Source: a virus
IMG/VR virus record: IMGVR_UViG_3300045988_020874
Location: 1-36,631 of that record
Direction: 5' to 3' (one strand)
DNA: 36,631 nucleotides
Each line of letters begins with the position of its first letter. Position 1 is the stretch's first letter. Below the pieces are notes generated by a model, which saw only the letters and a list, made by a program, of their open reading frames with translations, searched no databases and was not told the origin of the DNA. Made by a program: the position numbers and the translations under genes. Below, piece by piece: positions 1 through 10,662 of this stretch.

Positions 1-178
1 ACCCATGCATTGCCGAAAACCCATGCGTTGCCGGAAACCTTTGCATTGCCGGACACCTTTGCGTTGCCGAAAACCTCTGCGTTGCCGGAAACCTTTGCAT
101 TGCCAAAAACCTCTGCATTGTCAAAAACCTTTGCATTGTCAAAAACCTCTGCATTTCCGGTAACCCATGCATCGCCGT
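1..178. repeat. 18-nt tandem coding repeat (6-aa unit [G/D]NA[KEWR]V[SFT]) of the split repeat gene
   Basis: Direct reading shows units such as gcattgccggaaaccttt repeated head to tail. Nt 1-80 are identical to 36352-36431, and nt 1-46 are also identical to 36586-36631. Confidence 0.9.
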
Positions 179-323
179 CTTGCGATACATTTCCCTCTTT
201 CTCTACGTATCCTCCAAGTTCTCCTGCTTTCACGTCTCCAAAATCAATTAATGCCTTAATTCTAAATAATTTTTTCCCAGCTTCGTTTGTAATAGGCTCT
301 GTTGTTAATTCAAATTTTTTCAT
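1..323 (-). CDS. Hexapeptide-repeat (predicted beta-helix) phage protein, N-terminal part. Cut by the left window edge and continues in frame with the ORF open at the right edge.
   Basis: ATG at 323 in an ATGA overlap with the stop of 320..886. Translation is MKKFELTTEPITNEAGKKLFRIKALIDFGDVKAGELGGYVEKEGNVSQDGDAWVTGNAEVFDNAKV..., followed by 6-aa repeats down to nt 1 with no stop. Absent from the ORF track because it is edge-truncated. Confidence 0.8.
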   Translation of the reverse strand, partial: MKKFELTTEPITNEAGKKLFRIKALIDFGDVKAGELGGYVEKEGNVSQDGDAWVTGNAEVFDNAKVFDNAEVFGNAKVSGNAEVFGNAKVSGNAKVSGNAWVFGNAW

Positions 324-886
324 TTCCCTTCTTCCTTTCTTGGCTTCCATTTTCCTAACATTTGTTCCAATTCTCTTGGTGTTAGCGTTTCGATTCCTAA
401 ATCTTCCGCTTCCTGTATCGTTCCTTTGATTAGCTCACTCATTTCCCGACTGTCGTAGGTATGTGAGCCTCTCATGAGCCTGTAAAACACTACCTCTTTG
501 CCTTTTTCTAGCCGCCGTCCTATCGCAACTGTGTGAACGTCCTCTTTTTTGTACATGATGTCGGTTGGGACGTTAGTTTTCAAAACTGCTATGTCCCCTT
601 TTATCAGCTCCGGCTGTCCGTATCTTCCTATCATTAAATTTTTAGCTTCCGCCTTGCTCGTGCCGATTTTCTCTGCTATTTTGGTGACTAACACGTGGAA
701 ATAGGCGTTTGCCGACAAGCTTCTTTTCTTGCGGAACGGTTTAATTATTACGGACAGCTTTTCCAGCTTTTTCAGTTCGTCCACGCCCTTTATAAACTGC
801 TCCGCCTCGTTGATTTCCAGGGTAACTGTTATCTTTTTGCTAAAATAATCCACTGCTAAGTTTTTTATTTTTCCAGTTAAATCCAT
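320..886 (-). CDS. NinB/Orf-like recombination mediator (tentative)
   Basis: 188-aa ORF. The motif KKRSLSANAYFHVLVTKIAEKIG resembles the RSLDQNRKLWA segment of lambda NinB. It lies next to the ERF annealase gene. Confidence 0.45.
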   Translation of the reverse strand: MDLTGKIKNLAVDYFSKKITVTLEINEAEQFIKGVDELKKLEKLSVIIKPFRKKRSLSANAYFHVLVTKIAEKIGTSKAEAKNLMIGRYGQPELIKGDIAVLKTNVPTDIMYKKEDVHTVAIGRRLEKGKEVVFYRLMRGSHTYDSREMSELIKGTIQEAEDLGIETLTPRELEQMLGKWKPRKEEGK

Positions 887-887
887 G

Positions 888-1457
888 CTATTCCAGTCCT
901 AATTCTTTCATGGCTTCAGCGTATTGTTGCTGTGTCGTCTGATACAATGATTTTAAACCTCTTTGACTTGCCCATTCCTTGATCTGGGCTTCCGTCATTC
1001 CTTTTTTTTGCATCAGATCATAGAGCCGTTTCGCCTCTTTCTCTGTGACAACCTCGTTGCGTTTATATTCGTCTGTATCTGCATCTTTGGAATCATCCAG
1101 AAGAAACAAGCTATTTAAGGCGTATTTCCTCGCGTAGCTCGATGCTGACCCGGTAACTTGTGCTGCGTCCATCTTTTTTTTGCTTTCCTCCTCCCTGGCG
1201 TATGCTGTAGTGCAAAAACTGCCATCACTTTCTGTGTCTTTTAAAATTGCTGTCGCCTTTATGTAAAATCGGTTGCCCAGCATGATGATTTCGTCGTTTA
1301 CGGTTAATATTAAGCCTTCCCTGTCCAATAAAGGCTTTACTGCCTCGTAGATGTCCTCTAAGCTCCTGTAACTATAGCCACCATACTCACTGTATTTACT
1401 CTTGGGCACCTTTAATTCTGCTTGAATTTTTTGCAACTTTGTGTAAACATCTCCCAT
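888..1457 (-). CDS. erf: ERF-family single-strand annealing protein
   Basis: 189-aa ORF with GSASSYARKYALNSLFLLDD, which is typical of the ERF superfamily. Sits in the recombination-module context. Confidence 0.8.
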   Translation of the reverse strand: MGDVYTKLQKIQAELKVPKSKYSEYGGYSYRSLEDIYEAVKPLLDREGLILTVNDEIIMLGNRFYIKATAILKDTESDGSFCTTAYAREEESKKKMDAAQVTGSASSYARKYALNSLFLLDDSKDADTDEYKRNEVVTEKEAKRLYDLMQKKGMTEAQIKEWASQRGLKSLYQTTQQQYAEAMKELGLE

Positions 1458-1462
1458 TTTTC

Positions 1463-1924
1463 TTACCTCACAATCACGCTCTTTGAGGTCTCAATGTGTG
1501 CCCCTGCGACCTCTTTCCCGGCTTTAATTGCCTTTTTAATCGCTGTCTTGTCCGCCTGTGGCTCTGGAATTCTGATGTATTCCTCTGACAGACTACCTAA
1601 GTCGTCAATAGTCACAGACTCGCTGTTTCTGTATGACACGCTGACTCTTGCCGTCTTGAGCTTTTCACCGTCAAGAGCATGGGACAGATAGTCCTTGCAC
1701 CTCTGTGCGGCGTTCTCGCAACTTCTACGGCGTTTCGCAAGCTTTTCTTCCTCCTCTTTGATTGCCTTTGCTTCTGCGGCATAATTCTTCACCGCCAGCG
1801 CGATTCCCTCCACCTTTTTGTCTCTCTCGATGTTGAGAGCCTCAAGTTTTTCGAGGTCAATAATTTCTCCTGTCTCCTCGTCTACACAGTCCATAATTGC
1901 ACTGTCAATCTCGTATAGTGTCAT
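1463..1924 (-). CDS. Siphovirus Gp157-family protein
   Basis: 153 aa. N-terminal MTLYEIDSAI..., a central charged coiled segment, and a position upstream of erf match the usual Gp157 pattern. Confidence 0.65.
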   Translation of the reverse strand: MTLYEIDSAIMDCVDEETGEIIDLEKLEALNIERDKKVEGIALAVKNYAAEAKAIKEEEEKLAKRRRSCENAAQRCKDYLSHALDGEKLKTARVSVSYRNSESVTIDDLGSLSEEYIRIPEPQADKTAIKKAIKAGKEVAGAHIETSKSVIVR

Positions 1925-2073
1925 TGCTCTAATTCCTCCTCATATCCCTGCTCGTATTCGTTGCAGTTTTCCGCACCTCGTTTGATTGCTTTGTGTGCTG
2001 TTCTGCACTCATATTCCGCCTCAAGGCGCTGTGTCTTTAAATACTCTCTAGCCGGGTCAAATCCTCGTTCCAT
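1921..2073 (-). CDS. Small hypothetical protein (50 aa)
   Basis: Translation is MERGFDPAREYLKTQRLEAEYECRTAHKAIKRGAENCNEYEQGYEEELEQ. Its stop overlaps the next start (ATGA). It fills an otherwise empty gap but has a weak RBS. Below the ORF-track length cutoff. Confidence 0.35.
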   Translation of the reverse strand: MERGFDPAREYLKTQRLEAEYECRTAHKAIKRGAENCNEYEQGYEEELEQ

Positions 2074-2314
2074 TTCCTGTACCCCATGTCTCTTTAATAG
2101 CCTTGCTCAGTTCGTTGTAGCCTCTGGCGTATGCCTCTATCTTTTTCATGTCGTTGCTTCTTTCAACGCCCAGTCTAAACAGCTCAAGCAGTCCCTGTGC
2201 CACCTCTCTGTCTTTGACAGTGATCGTGACTTCTGCCGGGATTACTCCTTTCCCCATCACTTTATCGTCATATTCCTTCGCCTGGAACCACGTCGCATTA
2301 ATCATCGCATCCAT
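2057..2314 (-). CDS. Hypothetical early protein (85 aa)
   Basis: ORF in series with the early operon. No motif recognised. Confidence 0.6.
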   Translation of the reverse strand: MDAMINATWFQAKEYDDKVMGKGVIPAEVTITVKDREVAQGLLELFRLGVERSNDMKKIEAYARGYNELSKAIKETWGTGNGTRI

Positions 2315-2966
2315 AGCCTAACCTCTCTTTCTTTCCTGCTATCCAGTCACCTAATGCTCCCTCGCACTGTTCCGGGGTATAATTTTTATTATCCTGCTCT
2401 AACCGCCCAACTATTTCTCCCAGTGTGGGGAGTTCTGGTACTGTTTCTTTTCGCTCTATCGCTCCCGCCGCTCTTATCATTTCTCGGAGCTTCGGCGGGT
2501 ACTTGTCTATCTCCTTTTGTCTTTCTAACGCCGCTCTGTAGCTTCTGAGGAAGTTTGACTGTATGACCGTCTGAAAGTCCGCTGAATCTACTACCGCCCA
2601 GTCATGGAGCGTCTGTGGCGTTCCTACTGCCTTTTGCAACGTAGGGGGCAGTTTGTCAAACTCCTCTCTGTAACCGTAAATCCCGTTACCGCACGCCTTT
2701 GCCACTGTTGCCCATGCTTCCTGCTCGCTCAGGTAGCTGCTTTCTGCCTTGAGCTTGCTGGCACACTCCAAAATGTCTGCCGGTGTTGGCGGAAACTTAC
2801 CTGTTGTCATGTACATCTGCGCCGCTACGCTTATTGTCTGGTAGTCGTTGTTCTTACCTACTAGGCGGTACCACATATCTAACGCCTGTTCGTTGGGAAC
2901 AAATCCCGGAGCCGTGTAAACGGTCTTTAGTGCGGCTACGATTTTAGAAAACTCCGAAATCGTCAT
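2298..2966 (-). CDS. G39P-like replicative helicase loader (tentative)
   Basis: 222 aa. The N-terminal pattern F..I...LK..Y......NEQALDMWY..L......A......GKFPPTPADIL resembles the SPP1 G39P loader family. It lies directly downstream of the initiator gene. Confidence 0.5.
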   Translation of the reverse strand: MTISEFSKIVAALKTVYTAPGFVPNEQALDMWYRLVGKNNDYQTISVAAQMYMTTGKFPPTPADILECASKLKAESSYLSEQEAWATVAKACGNGIYGYREEFDKLPPTLQKAVGTPQTLHDWAVVDSADFQTVIQSNFLRSYRAALERQKEIDKYPPKLREMIRAAGAIERKETVPELPTLGEIVGRLEQDNKNYTPEQCEGALGDWIAGKKERLGYGCDD

Positions 2967-3723
2967 ACATTCCGCCTCCCTCCTGTTCTTTCTGTGCCGC
3001 CCAGTGCTGTATATCTCCGTACAGCCGTTCGTTAATGTTCTTCGTGCTGTCGTTAGCTGTTTTCAGTTCAAAAAGTCCTAGCCACTCTTTATCCAATGAC
3101 TGGTCTATAATCTGTTTCATCAGTCCAACATCACCGCCAGATAATTCATGCAACTTTTTGAGTAATGCTTTCAAGGCTCTATCCGTCCGAACTGGTTTTC
3201 TAATCTTCTTACGCATGGAAAGAAATTCCAGAAACTTATTGTTTAGTTCCTCGTCCTCAAAGTATCTCGCGGGCGCGCCTTTATCTTTAGTATTATTACT
3301 AGTATTATTATTAGTATTATATATATTAGTATTATTGGTACCCATTTTGACTACACCCCCGTACCCATTTTGACTACACCCCGTACCCATTTTGACTACA
3401 CCCCCGTACCCATTTTGACTACACCCCGTACCCATTTTGACTATAGGGGGTTCAGCTTTTTCATGAGCTATATAACGGTTAAATTTCACCCCACTAATCT
3501 CTTCAACTCTCTTCTCAATTACTCCACGATTTGCAAGATTTTCAAGATTTCTTTGTGCAGTACTTTTTGACACGCCAAGAAATTTGGAAATATATTTCAA
3601 CGACCCTTTAAATTCTGATTCGCCATCCTGCGAAAAGCCATAAATAAGGGCATACGTGAGAAGTTCGTTCCCCTTTAACTGTAAATCTGATATCATCCAA
3701 TCTTGAATAACGATATATGCCAT
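2944..3723 (-). CDS. Replication initiator / replisome organiser with N-terminal winged-HTH
   Basis: 259 aa. The N-terminus has an HTH (LKYISKFLGVSKSTAQRNLENLANRGVIEK). The central segment is encoded by the iteron repeats (VKMGTGCSQNGYGGV twice). An N/T-rich linker is encoded by AT-rich DNA. Confidence 0.7.
   Translation of the reverse strand: MAYIVIQDWMISDLQLKGNELLTYALIYGFSQDGESEFKGSLKYISKFLGVSKSTAQRNLENLANRGVIEKRVEEISGVKFNRYIAHEKAEPPIVKMGTGCSQNGYGGVVKMGTGCSQNGYGGVVKMGTNNTNIYNTNNNTSNNTKDKGAPARYFEDEELNNKFLEFLSMRKKIRKPVRTDRALKALLKKLHELSGGDVGLMKQIIDQSLDKEWLGLFELKTANDSTKNINERLYGDIQHWAAQKEQEGGGMYDDFGVF
3338..3445. repeat. Iteron array (5 copies of GTACCCATTTTGACTA at alternating 23/22-nt spacing), candidate phage origin of replication
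   Basis: Direct reading gives gtacccattttgactacaccccc / gtacccattttgactacacccc alternating, with the fifth copy degenerate at its end. Flanked at 3289-3337 by an AT-rich tract. Confidence 0.75.
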
Positions 3724-3792
3724 GTCTACCTCCTATCTTGACAAATTGCCAAGTCTTTTGTAAAATCTAGTTATGTTTTATTTGGCAAGAGC

Positions 3793-3939
3793 CTAGTGGT
3801 AAGGTTCTTCCTTTTTCACTTCGTGTTCTACGCCGTCTTTATCGGTATAAAACACTTTGTCATACTCTACACCTTGTTGTCGTCCTAAAAGGGTGTAGAG
3901 TAGTCTAGCAACATACTCTGGTCTCGGAGGTTCATTCAT
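3793..3939 (-). CDS. Small hypothetical protein (48 aa)
   Basis: ATG at 3939 preceded by GAGAGGAG. Translation is MNEPPRPEYVARLLYTLLGRQQGVEYDKVFYTDKDGVEHEVKKEEPYH. The longer track ORF 3793..4200 overlaps the antirepressor gene and is not used. Confidence 0.55.
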   Translation of the reverse strand: MNEPPRPEYVARLLYTLLGRQQGVEYDKVFYTDKDGVEHEVKKEEPYH

Positions 3940-3943
3940 TTTT

Positions 3944-4693
3944 TTACTCCTCTCTTTTCGTAAGTTCCTGACATTGCAAGAATTTATTAATAAAATATTG
4001 CTGTCCTTTACCCGTGACTTTAGTTGTCTTGGTGATGATATTTTCACCCGCTCCGTTAATGTAGGAGCCTTCCTTGATTTCAAACAATCCAAGCTCCATA
4101 CCTTTCTGGGCTGGCATGTTTCTGCTTGACCCACGTTTGAGTAGAAAGCCATTTTCACGCATCCAAGAAAACAATCTTCGTTGTCCGATTTCGATGCCAT
4201 TCTGTTTTAACAGCTTCGCAAGCTCACCAATCAAAATTGAGGTCTGGCTTGCTGAAACGGCATCTGCAAACACTTCTTTTGGTCGCATACGCTCAACGCT
4301 TTCAAGCAAAACTGCATTGTCAGCTTTTAAAGATTCAATGGTTTTGTCAGCCATTCTTAAGGCTCTGGCAAAAACCTGTTCTGGCGTGTTCCATGCTTTT
4401 TCAAGGTCGAGAAAATATTGTCTGTACAATCTGCCTTTTTCCGAACGCTGAATCATGCAAATCTGTTTTGCCATGTCTGTCGAAATTTGATAATCAACCA
4501 TGTTCTGGGCTCCGCCAAGGGTGGGACATTTTTGGTACACCCTTTTCCAATCTACATTTTCTGTAAATCCATACTCAGTCATACGAGGAAACCACTTCCT
4601 AAAATCAGTGTTTATCTCCAAACCCTCATGCAAATCCCTTGCGGAGACAGTTGGTTGCTCCGAATCGTAGTTGACAGGAATTAAAATCTCCAT
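3944..4693 (-). CDS. ant: Phage antirepressor (AntA/AntB-type N-terminal domain plus KilAC C-terminal domain)
   Basis: 249 aa. The N-terminal VSARDLHEGLEI...FRKWF...GF.ENVD pattern and the C-terminal VSASQTSILIGELAKLLKQNGIEIGQRRLFSWMRENGFL match ANT/KilAC domain patterns. Confidence 0.8.
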   Translation of the reverse strand: MEILIPVNYDSEQPTVSARDLHEGLEINTDFRKWFPRMTEYGFTENVDWKRVYQKCPTLGGAQNMVDYQISTDMAKQICMIQRSEKGRLYRQYFLDLEKAWNTPEQVFARALRMADKTIESLKADNAVLLESVERMRPKEVFADAVSASQTSILIGELAKLLKQNGIEIGQRRLFSWMRENGFLLKRGSSRNMPAQKGMELGLFEIKEGSYINGAGENIITKTTKVTGKGQQYFINKFLQCQELTKREE

Positions 4694-4843
4694 CTAGTCA
4701 CCTTCTTTCTGTTCTTCACGTTCCTGCTTCTTATTACTTGCCATTGCTTCACCCATGCCAAGCAAGTAGCCTTTATTAAATTCAGACATATTAGGAATAG
4801 CTTTTGTTATAGCTTCAAGAATCTGTTTTTCTTTTTCTGACAT
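4694..4843 (-). CDS. Small hypothetical protein (49 aa)
   Basis: ATG at 4843 with AGAGAGGTG 8 nt upstream. Translation is MSEKEKQILEAITKAIPNMSEFNKGYLLGMGEAMASNKKQEREEQKEGD. The TAG stop abuts the ant start. Confidence 0.6.
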   Translation of the reverse strand: MSEKEKQILEAITKAIPNMSEFNKGYLLGMGEAMASNKKQEREEQKEGD

Positions 4844-4863
4844 TTTTCAACACCTCTCTTTCT

Positions 4864-4929
4864 CGACCTGCCATCATCAGTACCGGGAGGTCGTCTCCGG
4901 TAGACGGTCATTCCTGACCGTTTCGGCTA
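4864..4929 (-). ncRNA. Hammerhead-ribozyme-like element (helix II open, type-II-like permutation), candidate
   Basis: The minus-strand RNA reads UAGCC-GAAA-CGGUCA-GGAA-UGACCG-UC-UACCGGAG-ACGAC-CUCCCGGUA-CUGAUGA-U-GGC-AGGUCG. All invariant core nucleotides are contiguous with two good hairpins. Helix II is only 3 bp. See findings. Confidence 0.5.
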
Positions 4930-5130
4930 TTTATTTTCTAAAATAATTTCAAGCACATTTTTTTCTGTCACTCTCATATCAGTAACTCTTTTGTCTAAAA
5001 GCTCATCCGTTCCACAACTCAAAAAGTCATCCGCAAAGTGCTCTGTTTCGAACTTCATACCAAACGTTGTTACTACTGTTCTAATCAATGTGCTATTGTC
5101 GATTATCATTAAAATATCGTAGAAATTCAT
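4927..5130 (-). CDS. Hypothetical early protein (67 aa)
   Basis: ORF with RBS AGGAGGG in the conserved 5' UTR box. No motif recognised. Confidence 0.6.
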   Translation of the reverse strand: MNFYDILMIIDNSTLIRTVVTTFGMKFETEHFADDFLSCGTDELLDKRVTDMRVTEKNVLEIILENK

Positions 5131-5175
5131 CTTGTTTCCCTCCTGTTTGGTTGTCTTGTGTTTTGACCGTTTCGG

Positions 5176-5409
5176 CTAATTTGAAATGTTCTGTAATCCT
5201 GCAATTACAAGTGCAAGTGTTGTTTTACCATTGTTTGCTTCTTTTGCTCTTGCCATTAATGCTGAATAAAGTTCATGTGGGATGTTCTTTGTACCGTTTA
5301 AAGCGGCTAAACATTCATCGTAAGTTAATAAATTAATCATTTCTTTCGCCTGCTCAATACTTTCAAGCTTATCAATTTTCTTATTTGCTAAATCTTCTCT
5401 TGTTATCAT
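5176..5409 (-). CDS. Hypothetical early protein (77 aa), first gene of the leftward early operon
   Basis: ORF with RBS AAGAGGG in the conserved 5' UTR box. No HTH is evident. Confidence 0.6.
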   Translation of the reverse strand: MITREDLANKKIDKLESIEQAKEMINLLTYDECLAALNGTKNIPHELYSALMARAKEANNGKTTLALVIAGLQNISN

Positions 5410-5454
5410 GTTTTCCCTCTTGTTTGGTTGTCTTGTGTTTCTTAGCTTAGTTAT

Positions 5455-5483
5455 ACTTTATCATAACTCAGATAAATTGTCAA
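5455..5483 (-). promoter_or_regulatory. Leftward early promoter (PL-like)
   Basis: Minus strand has TTGACA (5483-5478), a 17-nt spacer, then TAAAGT (5460-5455) preceded by TGA (extended -10-like). Confidence 0.6.
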
Positions 5484-5506
5484 TAGTTTTTTATAACTCA
5501 GTTATA
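5458..5506. promoter_or_regulatory. Candidate operator sites of the genetic switch
   Basis: ATAACTCAG occurs at 5463-5471 and 5493-5501, 30 nt apart. The second copy lies in the palindrome TATAACTCAGTTATA (5492-5506). The first lies in TTATC-N8-GATAA (5458-5475), inside the PL spacer. A further AGTTATA half-site is at 5449-5455. Confidence 0.5.
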
Positions 5507-5513
5507 TTTTTTA

Positions 5514-5542
5514 TTGACTTTGTAATTGCTATGGTGTACTAT
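5514..5542 (+). promoter_or_regulatory. Rightward promoter for the repressor gene
   Basis: TTGACT (5514-5519), a 17-nt spacer, then TACTAT (5537-5542). RBS GAAAGGAGG follows ahead of the ATG at 5568. Confidence 0.55.
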
Positions 5543-5567
5543 ACTAATTAGAAAGGAGGTGTCAAAA

Positions 5568-5948
5568 ATGAATCGTCTTAACGAAAGAATTGATTATCTG
5601 ATAAAGAGTCTTGGGATGAAAAAAACAGCTTTCGCTGAAAAGCTTAATGTATCACAAGCTTTTGTATCACAATTATGTTCAGGGGTTAAACAGCCTAGTG
5701 AAAGAACAATACAGGACATATGCACTAAATTTAACGTCAATGAAGACTGGCTACGAACTGGAAACGGTGAAATGTTTATCGAATTAACAAGAGATGAACA
5801 GATAGAAAACTTTGTCGGTGATGTACTGAAAAGCGAGGAAGATTCTTTTAAAAAGAAATTTATTTCGATGCTTTCGGCGTTAGATGAATCTGACTGGGAA
5901 GTTCTACAGAAAATGGTGGAGCTAATGCAGGAAAACAAAAAGGGCTGA
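5568..5948 (+). CDS. CI-like XRE-family repressor (HTH only, no peptidase domain)
   Basis: 126 aa from the ATG at 5568, which has a strong RBS. The track ORF starts earlier at 5526. HTH segment is KKTAFAEKLNVSQAFVSQLCSGVKQPSERTIQDICTKFNV. Divergent from the early operon. Confidence 0.8.
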   Translation: MNRLNERIDYLIKSLGMKKTAFAEKLNVSQAFVSQLCSGVKQPSERTIQDICTKFNVNEDWLRTGNGEMFIELTRDEQIENFVGDVLKSEEDSFKKKFISMLSALDESDWEVLQKMVELMQENKKG

Positions 5949-6050
5949 TTATTTCAGCCCCAGTAAAGCCTTGATGTGTATGTAGATGAGCCGTAAACAA
6001 CGCTCATCTGCCATATCAAGCATTTTAATAATTTCTTTTCTGTAATCCAT
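5949..6050 (-). CDS. Small hypothetical protein (33 aa)
   Basis: ATG at 6050 with GGGAGGGG 5 nt upstream. Translation is MDYRKEIIKMLDMADERCLRLIYIHIKALLGLK. It ends in the hairpin GGGCTGA-ttatt-TCAGCCC (5942-5960), which is followed by a T-run on this strand. Confidence 0.4.
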   Translation of the reverse strand: MDYRKEIIKMLDMADERCLRLIYIHIKALLGLK

Positions 6051-6137
6051 GCAACCCCTCCCGTTATCAAATCTTTACTGCATTATATGATGCGCGTATC
6101 TCATTTATTCATTTTGGACATTATTTTCAGCAAATCC

Positions 6138-6166
6138 CTTGATATTTTATTCAATATCCTGTATAA
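6138..6166 (+). promoter_or_regulatory. Sigma-70-type promoter for the membrane protein gene
   Basis: TTGATA (6138-6143), a 17-nt spacer, then TATAAT (6161-6166). Confidence 0.6.
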
Positions 6167-6212
6167 TTTTACCTAAATTATTAATATAATAAATAAAAAA
6201 GGAGCAGAAAAT

Positions 6213-6851
6213 ATGAGCAAAGAAAAAACTAAAGTTTGCAAGCATTGTAAAGAAGAAATTGACGCAAAAGCTAAAGTGTGTCCTCATTGTCGAAAGAAAC
6301 AGGGCGGCAAGTTGAAATGGGTAGTTATCATTATCATTGTTCTGGCTGTTTTAGGCATGGCAATGGGCGGTGGTGACGACGACAGTTCTTCCACTGATTC
6401 TCAGACAAAGAGTGCTGCAACAACAGCGGCTAAGAAAGAAACTGCTAAAAAGGAAGAAACAAAAGAGAAAGACAGCGTAAAGGTTGGTGAATCTTTTGAG
6501 AATGACGGTTTAAAAGTAACTGCTAAAAAGGCTGAATTTGGATATGATGCCGGAGAGTACTTTACTCCAAAAGATGGATGTGAATATGTAGCTGTAGACT
6601 TTACTTGTGAGAATATTGCAGAAAAAGGTGACAAATATGTATCTGTATCTGATTGCGAATGCTATGCGGACAATTCAGCTTGCGAACAGCAATACATAGG
6701 AAACAGTGATTTTGTTAACACTAATTTATCTCCGGGAAAGAATGTAAGCTTTACAGCATACTACGAAGTGCCAAAAGATGCAAAGAAAGTGATTTTAGAA
6801 TATAGTGCTTCGTTCTGGACAGACAAGAAGATAACTATTAATTTAAAATAA
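6213..6851 (+). CDS. Zinc-ribbon / single-TM / DUF4352-like extracellular domain protein
   Basis: 212 aa. It has CKHC...CPHC at the N-terminus, a TM segment (WVVIIIIVLAVLGMAMG), an S/T/K-rich linker, and a beta-rich C-terminal domain of the type found in DUF4352 proteins. Confidence 0.6.
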   Translation: MSKEKTKVCKHCKEEIDAKAKVCPHCRKKQGGKLKWVVIIIIVLAVLGMAMGGGDDDSSSTDSQTKSAATTAAKKETAKKEETKEKDSVKVGESFENDGLKVTAKKAEFGYDAGEYFTPKDGCEYVAVDFTCENIAEKGDKYVSVSDCECYADNSACEQQYIGNSDFVNTNLSPGKNVSFTAYYEVPKDAKKVILEYSASFWTDKKITINLK

Positions 6852-6876
6852 TTAGTCCACTAATAGGACAACCAAC

Positions 6877-6915
6877 AAGAGGGAGGAATCAGTTCTTCCC
6901 TCTTTTCTTTTTTTC
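6877..6915 (+). terminator. Rho-independent terminator
   Basis: A 12-bp stem aagagggaggaa / ttcttccctctt (one G-U pair) followed by ttcttttttt. Confidence 0.8.
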
Positions 6916-6920
6916 TCAAA

Positions 6921-6953
6921 ACAATAAAAAGCACCTGTCGAAACAAGTGCTTT
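6921..6953 (-). terminator. Rho-independent terminator for the 8119-to-7048 operon
   Basis: Minus strand reads AAAGCACTTGT-TTCG-ACAGGTGCTTT followed by TTATTGTTTT. Confidence 0.65.
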
Positions 6954-7047
6954 ATCTTTCCAAAATGGAACTATTAATATTTTTGGTTTTCAAAACTAAG
7001 CTAACATTCACATCCCAAAATGTAACTATTAAAACCATGTCTATATA

Positions 7048-7293
7048 TTACTTCTTTTCTCCGTATTTGTCAATGAGTTCTTTTGCCTTATCTATATTTT
7101 CTTGTATGGTATTGTATTCAGAATACCGATGTCCCCCAAATGCATAATAAGTATGGTAATAATATCCAATACTAATGTATCCGTTTGGCATTTTTATCCT
7201 GAACTCATTATTTGACTTAAAAACCATGTCTTTAGGCAAAGTGGCTAAGAATCTGTCTAATTTTCTTCTTTTATTAAATTTTAATTCTTGCAT
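7048..7293 (-). CDS. Hypothetical protein (81 aa), third gene of the unknown operon
   Basis: ORF with RBS GAGGAGAG. Has a Tyr-rich core (GYISIGYYYHTYYAFGGHRYSEY). No family recognised. Confidence 0.6.
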   Translation of the reverse strand: MQELKFNKRRKLDRFLATLPKDMVFKSNNEFRIKMPNGYISIGYYYHTYYAFGGHRYSEYNTIQENIDKAKELIDKYGEKK

Positions 7294-7336
7294 ATTACTC
7301 TCCTCTGCCCTCGTAGCCTCCGGGGCGGGAATTTAA

Positions 7337-7612
7337 TTACTGAACCTCTATATTAACGATATTAACAAGTGTGCAATCTGCACTTTCTTCCTCCGGATTG
7401 TACTCGCTTTCAATTTCGAAAGAAATTGCAAAATGGTCGTCAGAATCAGGAACTTTATAAAAGATATTTTTATCCTTTAAAACATCATCCCACGCGCCCT
7501 CATCGTTTATCCAGTCCAGTTCAGAAGGGCACCCAAGCCTTGTCATGATTTCGTCTAATTCATAAAGTGATACTGTGTTCCCTGTTAATTCTCTTCTTAA
7601 AATTTCCAACAT
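7337..7612 (-). CDS. Hypothetical strongly acidic protein (91 aa)
   Basis: ORF with RBS GAGGA. By my count 23 D/E versus 6 K/R. No family recognised. Confidence 0.6.
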   Translation of the reverse strand: MLEILRRELTGNTVSLYELDEIMTRLGCPSELDWINDEGAWDDVLKDKNIFYKVPDSDDHFAISFEIESEYNPEEESADCTLVNIVNIEVQ

Positions 7613-7669
7613 AATAATTTTTCCTCGTCTTTCTTTCTCCGGCGGATTCCGCCGCCGGTCGTGTATTTA

Positions 7670-8119
7670 TTATAAAGATTCTATTTTGTCAGCAACTGTC
7701 CAGAGGATTTTTTTAATTAAACTTCCTCCTGGATTCTTACAAAACCAGTCTTCTTTTTTACAGTCGTAATACAATTTAGCTCCAAATCCCCAGTCAACAA
7801 GGTTTAATGCTTGACGCTGTGCAAAGCTTTTATATTCATCTGTGCAGATGCCATTAATGATTCTTCCACGTCCCATTGCTGCTGGCGTATTAGTTTCTTC
7901 GACTTCCAAATATTTCTGAAAGTCATTAATATAGATACGTTTCATATCGCCCTTCTCCCACACCTTATAGCCAAGGCGGATAAGCTTTTCCTCCATTGTT
8001 TCTCCCATGTTCTTTGCTTCCTTCCATGCTAATTTCAATCCTTCGGAGATGCAAAGACCTGCCTTTTTAACTAACTCCCATGCTCTTTTCATAATGTTTG
8101 ATAAATTGTATTTTTTCAT
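7670..8119 (-). CDS. Hypothetical protein (149 aa), first gene of the unknown operon
   Basis: ORF directly downstream of the strong promoter in repeat arm 1. The N-terminal MKRAWELVKKAGL...LKLAWKEAK motif is seen in many mobile-element proteins of unknown function. Confidence 0.65.
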   Translation of the reverse strand: MKKYNLSNIMKRAWELVKKAGLCISEGLKLAWKEAKNMGETMEEKLIRLGYKVWEKGDMKRIYINDFQKYLEVEETNTPAAMGRGRIINGICTDEYKSFAQRQALNLVDWGFGAKLYYDCKKEDWFCKNPGGSLIKKILWTVADKIESL

Positions 8120-8127
8120 TTCTTTGT

Positions 8128-8204
8128 ATCTCCTCTCTTGATTTACTCACATTATACACGATAGTGACTATTATGTCAAGAGAAAAATACACGAAAATAT
8201 ATTA
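8128..8204. repeat. Inverted-repeat arm 1, carrying a minus-strand promoter, 5' UTR and RBS
   Basis: 77 nt with 6 mismatches to the reverse complement of 8515-8591. The minus strand has TTGACA (8179-8174), a 17-nt spacer, TATAAT (8156-8151), then GAGAGGAGA and the ATG at 8119. Confidence 0.85.
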
Positions 8205-8212
8205 TTTTTTTC

Positions 8213-8241
8213 TTGATATTTATTTCAAAATAATGTACTAT
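8213..8241 (+). promoter_or_regulatory. Promoter for the small HTH gene
   Basis: TTGATA (8213-8218), a 17-nt spacer, then TACTAT (8236-8241). RBS AAAGGAGG follows ahead of the ATG at 8272. Confidence 0.5.
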
Positions 8242-8271
8242 ATATTTATAACGATTAAAGGAGGTTTCAAA

Positions 8272-8517
8272 ATGGAAACACGAGCAAGAAAAAGAAGTAA
8301 CATATATAAAGGTAGTATCTCATATAGTAATTTATGGGACACGCTAGAACGCAGAGGGTTAAAGCGTTCCAACCTATTAGATAAGGAAAGTTTTAATCTT
8401 TCCCCGGCGCTGGTCAATAAGTTGCGGCACGACAGAAACGTGAACATAGATACAATTATGTATTTGTGCGAGAAATTGGACTGTCAGGTGTGCGACATCG
8501 TAGAATATAAAAAATAA
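8272..8517 (+). CDS. Small XRE-type HTH protein (81 aa)
   Basis: The ATG at 8272 has a strong RBS; the track ORF begins earlier. The pattern LWDTLERRGLKRSNLLDKESFNLSPALVNKLRHDRNVNIDTIMYLCEKLDCQVCDIVEY is typical of short HTH_XRE proteins. Confidence 0.7.
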   Translation: METRARKRSNIYKGSISYSNLWDTLERRGLKRSNLLDKESFNLSPALVNKLRHDRNVNIDTIMYLCEKLDCQVCDIVEYKK

Positions 8518-8591
8518 TATATTTTCGTGTATTTTTTTCTTGACATAATAGTCATTATCATGTACAATATGATTAAATCAAGAGAGGAGAT
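8515..8591. repeat. Inverted-repeat arm 2, carrying a plus-strand promoter, 5' UTR and RBS
   Basis: Reverse complement of arm 1 with 6 mismatches in 77 nt. Has TTGACA (8540-8545), a 17-nt spacer, TACAAT (8563-8568), then the RBS and the ATG at 8611. Confidence 0.85.
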
Positions 8592-8610
8592 ATAGAGAGG
8601 TGAAAAAATT

Positions 8611-9279
8611 ATGAGTTTTTCAGATAGATTAAGACAAGCGCGAAAAAGGCAGGGGTTAACACAAGAAGAGCTTGGTAAAAAAAGCGGACTTTCGACATAT
8701 ACCATTCAACGCTATGAATACGGGAAATTAAATCCGAAGAAAGATACAGTAGCCAAACTTGCTGCCGCTTTAAATCTTGGATATAATTACACAAAAAGCG
8801 GCGAGCCATACTTTTACACTTTCGCTGATACCGTACCAAGTCGAGAATATGAAGGTGTCGAAGATTTTAACCAAGAACAGTGCCGAAATGCAATAGAAAA
8901 AGCATTAGAAGATGTAACTTTGTCAATGATAGGAGAAAAAATCAAAACTGTGCGCCTACAAAAGGGAGTTTCGCAGGCGGCACTTGCTAAATGTCTAGGT
9001 GTTTCAGCTGCCATGATTTACCAGTACGAAGTCGGAAAAAAGAAGCCAAAGGTAGAGACCTTATCAAAAATCGCAGGCGCTCTAGGTGTCGATTTAAAAG
9101 TTTTTTATGACGATTTGCCACAAAAAACTATGGAATTAAAAAGATACGAAAACATAGCATTGGTTAACGAATTTGAAAATGCTTGTTTTCGCTTGGTTAA
9201 CTTTCCGGACAGTGAAGAAATAACTGAGAAATACGAAAAGCTTAGAAAAAAGCTAATAGACAGGCTTAGTTGTATGTAG
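8611..9279 (+). CDS. Tandem double-HTH XRE-family regulator
   Basis: 222 aa with two HTH_XRE units (LRQARKRQGLTQEELGKKSGLSTYTIQRYEYG and IKTVRLQKGVSQAALAKCLGVSAAMIYQYEVG). Lies immediately upstream of int. Confidence 0.8.
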   Translation: MSFSDRLRQARKRQGLTQEELGKKSGLSTYTIQRYEYGKLNPKKDTVAKLAAALNLGYNYTKSGEPYFYTFADTVPSREYEGVEDFNQEQCRNAIEKALEDVTLSMIGEKIKTVRLQKGVSQAALAKCLGVSAAMIYQYEVGKKKPKVETLSKIAGALGVDLKVFYDDLPQKTMELKRYENIALVNEFENACFRLVNFPDSEEITEKYEKLRKKLIDRLSCM

Positions 9280-9324
9280 ATAGCAGCACCCGCCCCGGAG
9301 GTACGAAGGCAGGAAGGGAAATAA

Positions 9325-10662
9325 ATGAAAAGAGCCGCTTTATACGTGCGAGTAAGTACGCAAGAGCAGAAGAACAGTGGATTGTCCGTTGATTCGCAGA
9401 TAGATGCGCTTGAAAAATATTGTGAGGAACAGGGTTATACGGTTGCTGGCATTTATAACGATGCCGGCATATCTGCACGTAAAAAATATACAAAACGCCC
9501 CGCCCTCTTACAGTTGCTTGAGGATTGCAGGCAATGTAAGATTGACATAATACTCTTCACGCGCCTTGACAGGTGGTTTAGAGCCGTTGCAGGGTACTAC
9601 GAGGTACAAAATGTCCTTGACGCGTGTAAAGTGCCTTGGAGGGCTATCTGGGAGGATTATGAGACGGAGACAAGCCAGGGAATATTTAAAGTAAATATTA
9701 TGCTGTCCGTAGCGCAGGCGGAGGCAGACAGGGACAGCGAGAAAATACGGTCTGTTATGGAATTTAAACGGAACAACAAGGAATATATTGGTGGAAAAGT
9801 GCCGGTAGGTTATCGCATAGAAGGAAAAAAGATTGTAAAAGACGAAAAGACGCGAGGAATAATTGAGGATATGTTTGAGCATTACTTTCAGACCTTCTCA
9901 AAAGCAGGAACCGCCGACTATATTTTGAGTAAATACCCTGATTTTGTAAGAACCAGAACAAGGTTGGTTAAGATTATGTCCAGCCCGGCTTATCGCGGCG
10001 AAATGTATGGAGTAAAAAACTACTGTGAGCCGTACATCACAGAGGAACAAGCGCAAAAAATCAACGAAGTATCCAGCCAAAAAACTTGGACGGATTGCAG
10101 GAGGCGTATTTATATTTTTTCTGGCCTGATGAAATGCCCACTTTGCGGTTGCAGGCTTTCCGGGTGTGCAATAGGCAAAAAAGGAAAAAAGTACAAAGTA
10201 TATCACTGCCCCCACTCTGTCGCACAAAAGCACAAGACCTACACGAGATCAGAAAAAAAATTAGAAACATATATGCTCGACCACATCGAAGAAAAAATAC
10301 AGTTAGATGTATTAAAGGCAGAAGGTCGTGTGAAGGCAGGCGGAAACGATGCGGAAAAGAGAAAGAAAAAATTATCCAGTGAGTTGGGAAGAATTAATAA
10401 AATGTTTGAAAAAGGCAGAATAACAGAAGAATACTATGACGAAAGATACGAGGCTATATCGAAGGAACTAAAAGAACTATCCCAGACCGCCGCAACGGAA
10501 GAACTAGAAACTAAGAAAAAAATACAAAGTAAATTTCCTGACGGTTGGAAAGATATGTATATGCAGTTAGACGAACAAGGCAAGCAGGTGTTTTGGAAAA
10601 GCATTGTAAAAGAAATAAAAATATCCCCCGACACTTACGTGGAGGATATTATATTTTTTTAG
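9325..10662 (+). CDS. int: Large serine recombinase (phage integrase)
   Basis: 445 aa. The N-terminal resolvase-type catalytic motif is ALYVRVSTQEQ. A recombinase domain follows, then a Cys-rich zinc ribbon (CPLCGCRLSGC...YHCPH) and a C-terminal coiled coil. Confidence 0.85.
   Translation: MKRAALYVRVSTQEQKNSGLSVDSQIDALEKYCEEQGYTVAGIYNDAGISARKKYTKRPALLQLLEDCRQCKIDIILFTRLDRWFRAVAGYYEVQNVLDACKVPWRAIWEDYETETSQGIFKVNIMLSVAQAEADRDSEKIRSVMEFKRNNKEYIGGKVPVGYRIEGKKIVKDEKTRGIIEDMFEHYFQTFSKAGTADYILSKYPDFVRTRTRLVKIMSSPAYRGEMYGVKNYCEPYITEEQAQKINEVSSQKTWTDCRRRIYIFSGLMKCPLCGCRLSGCAIGKKGKKYKVYHCPHSVAQKHKTYTRSEKKLETYMLDHIEEKIQLDVLKAEGRVKAGGNDAEKRKKKLSSELGRINKMFEKGRITEEYYDERYEAISKELKELSQTAATEELETKKKIQSKFPDGWKDMYMQLDEQGKQVFWKSIVKEIKISPDTYVEDIIFF

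Follow-up and report, generated by a model that had tools for sequence, protein, structure and literature searches.

Does the early leftward operon of this phage carry a self-cleaving RNA, and what would such an RNA do to the transcript that contains it? The window analysed here, which is the whole 36,631-nucleotide stretch of DNA (positions 1 to 36,631 of IMG/VR record IMGVR_UViG_3300045988_020874), is a temperate siphovirus-like genome, and a sequence on its minus strand between two small early ORFs was originally predicted to form a hammerhead-ribozyme-like core. Judging from this sequence and its relatives, we are highly confident that 4864..4928 is a bona fide, probably active type II hammerhead, a member of Rfam family RF02276. 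The phage is a temperate one of gut Lachnospiraceae, and the element belongs to its early lytic operon. The hammerhead class, its pseudoknot and its prophage setting were all published in 2011. Because the class is published and the window copy shows every computable hallmark of it, we file the element as one of an already known kind. The additions made here are modest and comprise its fixed position by the lysogeny switch, its overlap with a stop codon and its island-like conservation.

Identification of a type II hammerhead ribozyme

A search of the whole window on both strands with the Rfam covariance models identified RF02276 (Hammerhead_II) at 4862..4928 (−) with a score of 44.7 bits (gathering score 37, E = 3.8e-6). 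The match extends over the full model (positions 1-66 of 66), which bears out the hammerhead-like core that had been proposed. No family other than RF02276 reached its gathering score within the 36.6-kb window; hammerhead types I, III, HH9 and HH10 and the other self-cleaving ribozyme classes are among the families without a match at this threshold. A permissive Rfam rescan of 3500..6500 yielded nothing else with E < 1. The Infernal search places the type II model above its curated threshold and leaves the other hammerhead types without a match.

We aligned 96 diverse copies of the element (alignment A1), in which the core nucleotides are invariant or nearly so, and used a covariance model (R1) that encodes helices I, II and III and leaves the pseudoknot out. 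With filters off, R1 finds exactly one hammerhead in the window, at 4858..4928 (−) with 81.2 bits, and the runner-up in the window scores 12 bits. The window copy is the highest-scoring match to this family model of 96 relatives. The register of helix II in the Rfam consensus line looks odd. In R1, helix II is encoded explicitly as 3 bp, and 98.5% of its cells are paired.

Membership in the type II hammerheads (RF02276, clan CL00010) is indicated by the model score, the catalytic core, the three helices and the pseudoknot. Read directly from the sequence, the core consists of C3 U4 G5 A6 N7 G8 A9, G12 A13 A14, the A15.1-U16.1 pair, H17 and the G10.1-C11.1 pair. Helices I and III are capped by loops and helix II is open at the RNA ends, which is the type II permutation. 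The helix-II-open permutation of the first description corresponds, together with its pseudoknot, to the type II hammerhead known from the literature. The identification by itself adds little, as standard Rfam annotation labels the element. The coordinates of the ribozyme and of the surrounding features are collected in Table 1.

Table 1. Features of the hammerhead ribozyme and of its operon in the window.
Feature	Position	Strand	Basis or remark
Complete type II hammerhead ribozyme	4864..4928	−	RF02276 and model R1
Helix II 5' strand GCC (positions 11.3-11.1)	4925..4927	−	sequence; pairs with 4872..4870
Core G12 A13 A14	4922..4924	−	invariant in all 96 aligned relatives
Helix III hairpin ACGGUCA / UGACCGU	4904..4921	−	7 bp, 4921..4915 with 4910..4904
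Loop III, GGAA tetraloop	4911..4914	−	sequence
Predicted scissile bond C4903 / U4902 (3' of C17, before U1.1)	4902..4903	−	RF02276 alignment and established hammerhead mechanism
Helix I hairpin UACCGG / CCGGUA	4881..4902	−	6 bp, 4902..4897 with 4886..4881
Loop I, AGACGACCUC, 10 nt	4887..4896	−	sequence
Pseudoknot 5' strand CGACCU in loop I	4888..4893	−	complementary to 4864..4869
Core C3 U4 G5 A6 U7 G8 A9 (CUGAUGA)	4874..4880	−	sequence, relatives
Extra U between A9 and G10.1	4873	−	sequence
Helix II 3' strand GGC (positions 10.1-10.3)	4870..4872	−	sequence; 3 bp
Pseudoknot 3' strand AGGUCG, directly 3' of helix II	4864..4869	−	6 bp
Shine-Dalgarno-like GAGAGGUG of ORF49	4851..4858	−	5 nt after pseudoknot tail
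ORF49, first cistron on 3' cleavage product	4694..4843	−	start codon at 4843
Antirepressor, AntA and KilAC domains, second cistron downstream	3944..4693	−	PF08346, PF03374; phrog_63
ORF67, upstream cistron	4927..5130	−	TAG stop (4929..4927) overlaps first nucleotides of ribozyme
Duplicate of early-operon leader and ribosome-binding region, before ORF67	5135..5163	−	29 nt, 97% identical to 5412..5440
Non-functional half-copy: TAG stop, helix II 5' strand, GAAA and helix III 5' arm only	5164..5178	−	after ORF77
Likely early (lytic) promoter: TTGACA, 17-nt spacer, TAAAGT, upstream TG (extended −10)	5455..5483	−	consensus scan only
CI-like HTH repressor, divergent from ribozyme operon	5568..5948	+	Pfam HTH_3, Phage_CI_repr
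Sie-like protein	6213..6851	+	
Serine integrase	9325..10662	+	

Anatomy of the window copy

Every core nucleotide is present in the window copy and no mispair adjoins the core. The closing pair of helix III is A15.1-U16.1, C17 of the GUC triplet is at 4903, and G4927 is shared by helix II and the TAG stop codon of ORF67, of which it is the last base. C17 is a C in 148 of 150 aligned relatives. The extra U at 4873 was found in 117 of 150 aligned relatives, in a collection for which one of the two search patterns demanded U. Other hammerheads are documented to tolerate an additional nucleotide between A9 and G10.1, and U is favourable at this position, according to a passage of PMC3705267 that cites De la Pena and Flores 2001.

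The RNA string given in the original prediction is the exact minus strand of 4929..4864, and most of its parts stand as they were drawn. GAA, a 7-bp helix III, the GGAA loop, GUC and CUGAUGA all occur in the order stated, and the weak 3-bp GCC/GGC helix II follows an extra U as described (4927..4925 with 4872..4870, U4873). Helix I was drawn as 6 bp, a bulged C and 2 further bp; the 6 bp are retained here, and the bulge with the 2 bp is dropped, as these nucleotides overlap two pseudoknot pairs and the relatives favour the pseudoknot. The complementarity of the tail AGGUCG to CGACCU, raised as a possible pseudoknot, is present and covaries in relatives. The placement of the element in a non-coding gap holds for most of its length, the exception being its first nucleotides, which overlap the TAG stop of ORF 4927..5130.

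Thermodynamic folding alone, in a nested-only prediction, did not recover the hammerhead. The nested-only minimum free energy is −24.8 kcal/mol for an alternative fold, as compared to −21.2 to −22.7 kcal/mol for the nested hammerhead fold. The alternative forms the pseudoknot helix as a hairpin, and the folding tool cannot add pseudoknot energies; the hammerhead is missed because the pseudoknot helix competes. Preference for the alternative in nested folding is expected for a pseudoknotted RNA, and we do not count it against the ribozyme.

The different nested fold, the extra U in the core, and the existence of decayed copies both in relatives and in the window itself (5164..5178) could be taken to mean that the element is a decaying, catalytically inactive relic and that the operon is not processed there. 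We find this hardly credible, since every core position, the three helices and the 6-bp pseudoknot are intact and the window copy, at 81.2 bits, tops the matches to the family model. Identical or near-identical copies in several contigs with different flanks also argue against a relic. Most members of the lineage share the extra U, an insertion known to be tolerated in other hammerheads (PMC3705267). An intact and probably active ribozyme remains the reading that we adopt.

Related copies and covariation

Related copies are carried by at least 220 contigs from gut phages and Lachnospiraceae. A search of IMG/VR for the helix III of the window together with its core flanks gave at least 119 contigs; nearly all of these are complete hammerheads, with 75 distinct versions among the matches listed. 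When helix III was left free, the scan found at least 109 further loci, which carry 99 different helix III sequences among the matches listed. A scan of bacterial genomes yielded 23 loci, almost all in gut Lachnospiraceae or other Eubacteriales, and the genera with the element include Blautia, Roseburia, Fusicatenibacter and Mediterraneibacter. Identical or near-identical copies recur in several contigs whose flanks differ, and four relatives (L123, L146, L201 and L159) contain arrays of 3-9 ribozymes. In a phage collection the element had just 4 matches; all are weak and come from uncultured contigs that carry no annotation. The nearest records to the window as a whole are unannotated faecal phage contigs.

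Model R1 was searched against 99 loci and the window and returned 152 matches, from which the covariation set of 138 distinct sequences was taken. In this set 90.7% of cells at the paired positions are standard pairs, as compared to 63.8% with shuffled partners and 32-40% when one strand was slid by 1-3 columns. The covariation score is 0.675 for the observed pairs, 0.169 for shuffled partners and 0.065-0.104 for pairs slid by 1-3 columns. Double changes occur at 19 of the 22 pairs overall. Compensatory changes are found at all six pairs of helix I, where 97.3% of cells are paired, and at five of the seven pairs of helix III, across loci that were found without fixing helix III. Helix II has double changes at two of its three pairs and is 98.5% paired in relatives. 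The pseudoknot, which is absent from the aligning model, shows double changes at 6/6 pairs, with 17, 49 and 47 at the three central pairs (138 distinct relatives). Covariation in the related phage loci therefore extends over helices I, II and III and the pairing of loop I with the 3' tail, as the predicted structure leads one to expect. G-U pairs are present on the ribozyme strand in relatives. Since these pairs occur on one strand, selection appears to act on the RNA rather than on the DNA.

With this covariation in four helices and the E-value of RF02276 over the whole model, the notion that the resemblance is fortuitous, or that the sequence is something else (a terminator, a protein-binding hairpin or the short ORF at 4807..4911), is effectively refuted, and we give it next to no weight. 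CUGAUGA alone is not rare: the original prediction counted four other copies and a few expected by chance, and we count 5 in the window against 3.4 expected. Its judgement that the whole arrangement is unlikely to arise by chance agrees with the E-value of the RF02276 match. Neither hairpin is followed by a U-tract. The ORF that overlaps the element encodes 34 aa, and its AUG lies inside helix III, where other lineages have unrelated sequences without an AUG.

Operon and genomic setting

The ribozyme lies on the same strand as all flanking early genes. The leftward early operon is arranged in the order ORF77, ORF67, hammerhead, ORF49, AntA/KilAC antirepressor, O-like replication initiator, helicase loader and Gam-like protein. 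The promoter-like site at 5455..5483 (−) has operator-like repeats on its flanks and is conserved in relatives upstream of either cassette. The ribozyme is located ~545 nt downstream of this site (5483..5455), and no terminator-like site was found on the minus strand between the two. With the promoter-like site upstream, no terminator in between, and ORF49 and the AntA/KilAC gene downstream, the element sits in an early leftward operon ahead of the antirepressor cistrons, as had been proposed.

ORF77, ORF67 and ORF49 have no Pfam or PHROG match, so the genes that flank the ribozyme give no clue to function. ORF67 is an alternative cassette that is absent in two relatives, L107 and L001. Homologues of ORF49 were detected in 42 of the 119 lineage loci, among the matches listed.

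Cassette exchange at the hammerhead

The gene upstream of the hammerhead varies among relatives. The arrangement leader-ORF77-hammerhead occurs in L107 and L001, leader-ORF67-hammerhead occurs in L037, L117, L025 and others, and the window and L038 carry both cassettes in tandem. Between the two cassettes of the window is a half-copy of the ribozyme, an exact 15-nt repeat TAGCCGAAACGGTCA for which 0.05 copies are expected by chance; the similarity extends to 18 nt at 94% identity. The half-copy (5164..5178) directly adjoins the duplicate of the operon leader (5135..5163). It is a recombination scar, in which a hammerhead broken in loop III was joined to the leader of the alternative cassette. 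The join at 5163/5164 was probably made through the microhomology AGAAA. The same type of scar, with a slightly different version of the junction, is present in L038, and other decayed copies occur in relatives at low frequency.

We considered the half-copy as a second or split ribozyme and rejected it: it lacks the 3' arm of helix III, C17, helix I and CUGAUGA, R1 gives no match at this site even with filters off, and the relatives show it to be a junction scar. On paper the half-copy could contribute to a discontinuous hammerhead with ORF67 as its 'loop III', an arrangement that is unnecessary and kinetically disfavoured. No further ribozymes were found in the window by the Rfam scans or by model R1.

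A second structured RNA, RAGATH-8 (RF02687), is present in relatives L114, L031 and L077. In L114 it spans 4011..4280 with a score of 272.5 bits and lies directly 3' of the homologous hammerhead. The Rfam scan gave no match to RAGATH-8 in the window. The RAGATH RNAs have been published as a class whose defining feature is that they are associated with loci of hammerhead and twister ribozymes (PMC11061315).

Position of the ribozyme across the lineage

Throughout the lineage the ribozyme keeps the same place, which follows the first small ORF and lies beside the lysogeny switch. At 111 of 193 distinct sites, among the matches listed, the upstream ORF ends in a stop codon that overlaps nucleotides 1-2 of the ribozyme or directly adjoins them. 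On the other side, the next start codon in relatives is usually 15-35 nt after helix II. A homologue of the window's repressor (30-100% identity) was detected in 62 of the 119 lineage loci that share helix III, among the matches listed, and in all 62 of these it is divergent and upstream of the ribozyme. The median distance from the start of the ribozyme to the repressor start codon is 397 nt (62 loci). In the set found with helix III left free, only 2 of 109 loci have a repressor of the window type, among the matches listed.

Homology between loci starts within 25 nt of the 5' end of the ribozyme in 93% of 3689 locus pairs (distinct loci, among the matches listed), and it ends within 25 nt of the 3' end in 84% of these 3689 pairs. 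The edges of homology coincide with the ends of the ribozyme, which indicates that the ribozyme is maintained independently of the flanking genes.

Such edges invite the explanation that the conserved block of 70 nt serves mainly as a DNA-level linker, a shared stretch of homology through which unrelated phages exchange gene cassettes, RNA cleavage being incidental or secondary. Among the matches listed, most locus pairs have hammerheads of 80-100% identity set between flanks that are otherwise unrelated. The ORF77 and ORF67 cassettes and the downstream RAGATH-8 insert are swapped exactly at its edges, and truncated and internally deleted hammerhead copies mark old junctions. What matters for a DNA linker is identity rather than structure. 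The pseudoknot and helices I and III nevertheless vary by compensatory substitution, at least 11 core nucleotides are invariant, and G-U pairs are kept on one strand only. In addition, the one join of the window whose origin can be retraced (5163/5164) went through microhomology inside loop III and was not a homologous exchange. We therefore consider a primarily DNA-level role distinctly improbable. A linker role is compatible with an RNA-level ribozyme function, which we regard as the best explanation, when it is taken as a side effect and not as the primary constraint.

Proposed function

Taking the cleaving ribozyme as the working model, its action can be outlined from the hammerhead mechanism. 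During transcription of the early operon, helices III and I and the short helix II can form around the conserved core, and the 3' tail AGGUCG can pair with loop I to give the pseudoknot. In type II hammerheads the pseudoknot holds helices I and II parallel. Internal transesterification would break the RNA between C4903 and U4902. The GC-rich hairpin of helix III, with a 2',3'-cyclic phosphate, would then form the 3' end of the upstream product, which would contain the leader, ORF77 and ORF67; this end would be 24 nt past the stop codon, which should be enough downstream RNA for normal termination. At the start of the downstream product (ORF49, antirepressor and replication genes) there would be a 5'-OH paired in the fold of helix I and the pseudoknot, and this fold would stand 5 nt ahead of the ribosome-binding site of ORF49. 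In the glmS case, 5'-OH ends are degraded by RNase J1. Hairpins at the 5' end stabilise mRNAs in Bacillus.

We suggest that the ribozyme probably cuts the early lytic transcript into two parts, one with the small ORFs next to the promoter and one with ORF49, antirepressor and replication genes. By analogy it may act as an intercistronic processing site that is independent of the host. The stability and translation of the variable promoter-proximal cassette could in this way be uncoupled from those of the conserved early genes downstream. The efficiency of cleavage in vivo is uncertain, because helices II and III would be opened for a time whenever a ribosome terminates at the stop codon that overlaps the element.

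The overlap of the 5' strand of the ribozyme with the stop codon of the first small ORF also suggests a bolder scheme, which we think unlikely and put forward as speculation. In many temperate phages of Lachnospiraceae, which form a large group, the hammerhead lineage would here belong integrally to the switch between lysis and lysogeny and would be active only under certain conditions. Self-cleavage would be gated by terminating ribosomes, Mg2+ or folding conditions and would set the dose of antirepressor and replication mRNA; the ribozyme might also be a natural insulator that lets first-gene cassettes swap without disturbing downstream expression.

The discoverers of the class described its biological function as unproven (PMC3088659), and we found no functional studies of prophage hammerheads after 2011 in the literature searched. 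The present lineage offers a clean test case, with a single ribozyme at a fixed position between the first cassette and the antirepressor and replication genes. This position is kept across repressors that are only 30% identical, and natural variants differ in whether they carry a single cassette, both cassettes or RAGATH-8 as an additional RNA.

Comparison with known systems

The closest known systems are the type II hammerheads described by Perreault et al. 2011 (PMC3088659), in which loop I forms a pseudoknot with the 3' tail and helix II can be as short as two pairs. In most members the pseudoknot comprises at least 4 bp, which loop I forms with the residues that immediately follow helix II (PMC3088659). 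The mechanism of the class is an internal transesterification 3' of position 17, and pseudoknotted type II hammerheads reach cleavage rates above 1 per minute in 0.5 mM Mg2+ (PMC3088659). In the type II hammerheads tested, the pseudoknot is required for fast cleavage at physiological Mg2+ (PMC3088659). The same paper describes prophage contexts with ribozymes that flank genes of varying identity, with tests on Clostridium scindens (Lachnospiraceae), from which prophage transcripts carrying several hammerheads were cut in vitro at the expected sites (PMC3088659).

The published type II examples (PMC3088659) and the window copy are alike in the core, the permutation, a helix II of 2-3 bp and a pseudoknot of 5-6 bp that follows directly after helix II. 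Both also occupy intergenic sites in phages of gut Firmicutes, on prophage transcripts that are polycistronic in the published cases and predicted to be so in the window. The published arrays flank genes, whereas the window has a single ribozyme, which is no difference in kind. We did not find the fixed slot of the window lineage beside the lysogeny switch stated in the 2011 paper (PMC3088659).

The extra nucleotide of the core has a counterpart in the (+) hammerhead of Chrysanthemum chlorotic mottle viroid, which has one between A9 and G10.1; a U there raises trans-cleavage 3-4 fold, according to the same passage of PMC3705267. The viroid hammerhead differs from that of the window in its topology and in having loop-loop tertiary contacts in place of a pseudoknot. 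RAGATH-8 (RF02687) occupies the same intercistronic slot in close relatives and is absent from the window.

Two further systems resemble the proposed function. RNase III processing sites lie between early genes of phage T7 and phage SP82. These sites work like the window element only in the sense that structured intercistronic elements cut a long early transcript, whose new 3' end then carries a hairpin. The two are unrelated in sequence and in structure, and cleavage in the window would be autocatalytic, with no need for a host enzyme, giving 2',3'-cyclic phosphate and 5'-OH ends. In synthetic ribozyme insulators such as RiboJ, a hammerhead derived by engineering from a satellite RNA and fitted with an added hairpin, self-cleavage before the ribosome-binding site removes variable upstream RNA and makes downstream expression independent of it. 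We know of no natural phage hammerhead for which an insulating effect has been shown. The feature of the window lineage that resembles the RiboJ arrangement is its variable upstream cassette, which consists of ORF77, ORF67 or both.

First-gene cassettes of the early operon

In the early operon, an 18-nt repeat of the 5' part of the type II hammerhead adjoins a 29-nt repeat of the operon leader. It follows that ORF77 and ORF67, the two small genes preceding the hammerhead, are alternative cassettes for the first gene that have been joined one after the other in the window; relatives carry either the ORF77 or the ORF67 cassette. Neither Pfam nor PHROG gives a match for the three small early ORFs that surround the ribozyme (5176..5409, 4927..5130 and 4694..4843). 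Since no Cro-like HTH gene lies downstream of the early promoter in the window, the lysis-lysogeny switch may depend on the antirepressor.

Features in the window and in related loci (L-numbers)
Feature	Location	Strand	Remarks
Partial hammerhead and leader copy	window 5135..5181	-	repeats of 4915..4932 and 5412..5440
Two 30-nt direct repeats	window 5453..5512		overlapping early promoter
Tandem repeat	window 3338..3443		within O-like replication-initiator gene 2944..3723
AT-rich short-repeat tract	window 3287..3340		adjoins tandem repeat
CCGAUGA hammerhead	L211 4518..4588		
RAGATH-8 RNA (RF02687)	L114 4011..4280		270 nt, 272.5 bits
Hammerhead array	L123 about 6200..9600		
Hammerhead array	L146 about 150..5100		

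Repeats at the early promoter and in the initiator gene

The two direct repeats at the early promoter are 73% identical to each other and probably serve as repressor operators; a TATAACTCAGTTATA / ATAACTCAGATAA motif that resembles a palindrome is present in each. The tandem repeat in the initiator gene is perfect, with 2.4 copies of a 45-nt unit (or 4.7 copies of a 22-23-nt unit). Together with the AT-rich tract, it looks like origin iterons within an initiator gene.

Variation and loss of the hammerhead in relatives

CCGAUGA replaces the core CUGAUGA (U4 to C) in L211, L233 and L251, where the scaffold is otherwise intact. Seven other relatives (L010, L174, L241, L246, L095, L100 and L235) carry decayed hammerheads that have internal deletions or are truncated after helix III, several of them joined directly to the ribosome-binding site of the following gene. 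These decayed copies show that the ribozyme is occasionally lost through short-homology deletions. RAGATH-8, not found in the window, is inserted in some close relatives downstream of the homologous hammerhead and ahead of the ribosome-binding site of ORF49; besides L114, L031 and L077 also have it, in each case immediately 3' of the hammerhead.

Type II hammerheads form arrays of 3 to ~9 copies in each of L123, L146, L201, L177 and L159, spaced a few hundred nt apart and each beside single small genes. Unlike the published pattern of multiple hammerheads flanking genes (PMC3088659), the window holds a single hammerhead; the arrays in these five relatives match that pattern.
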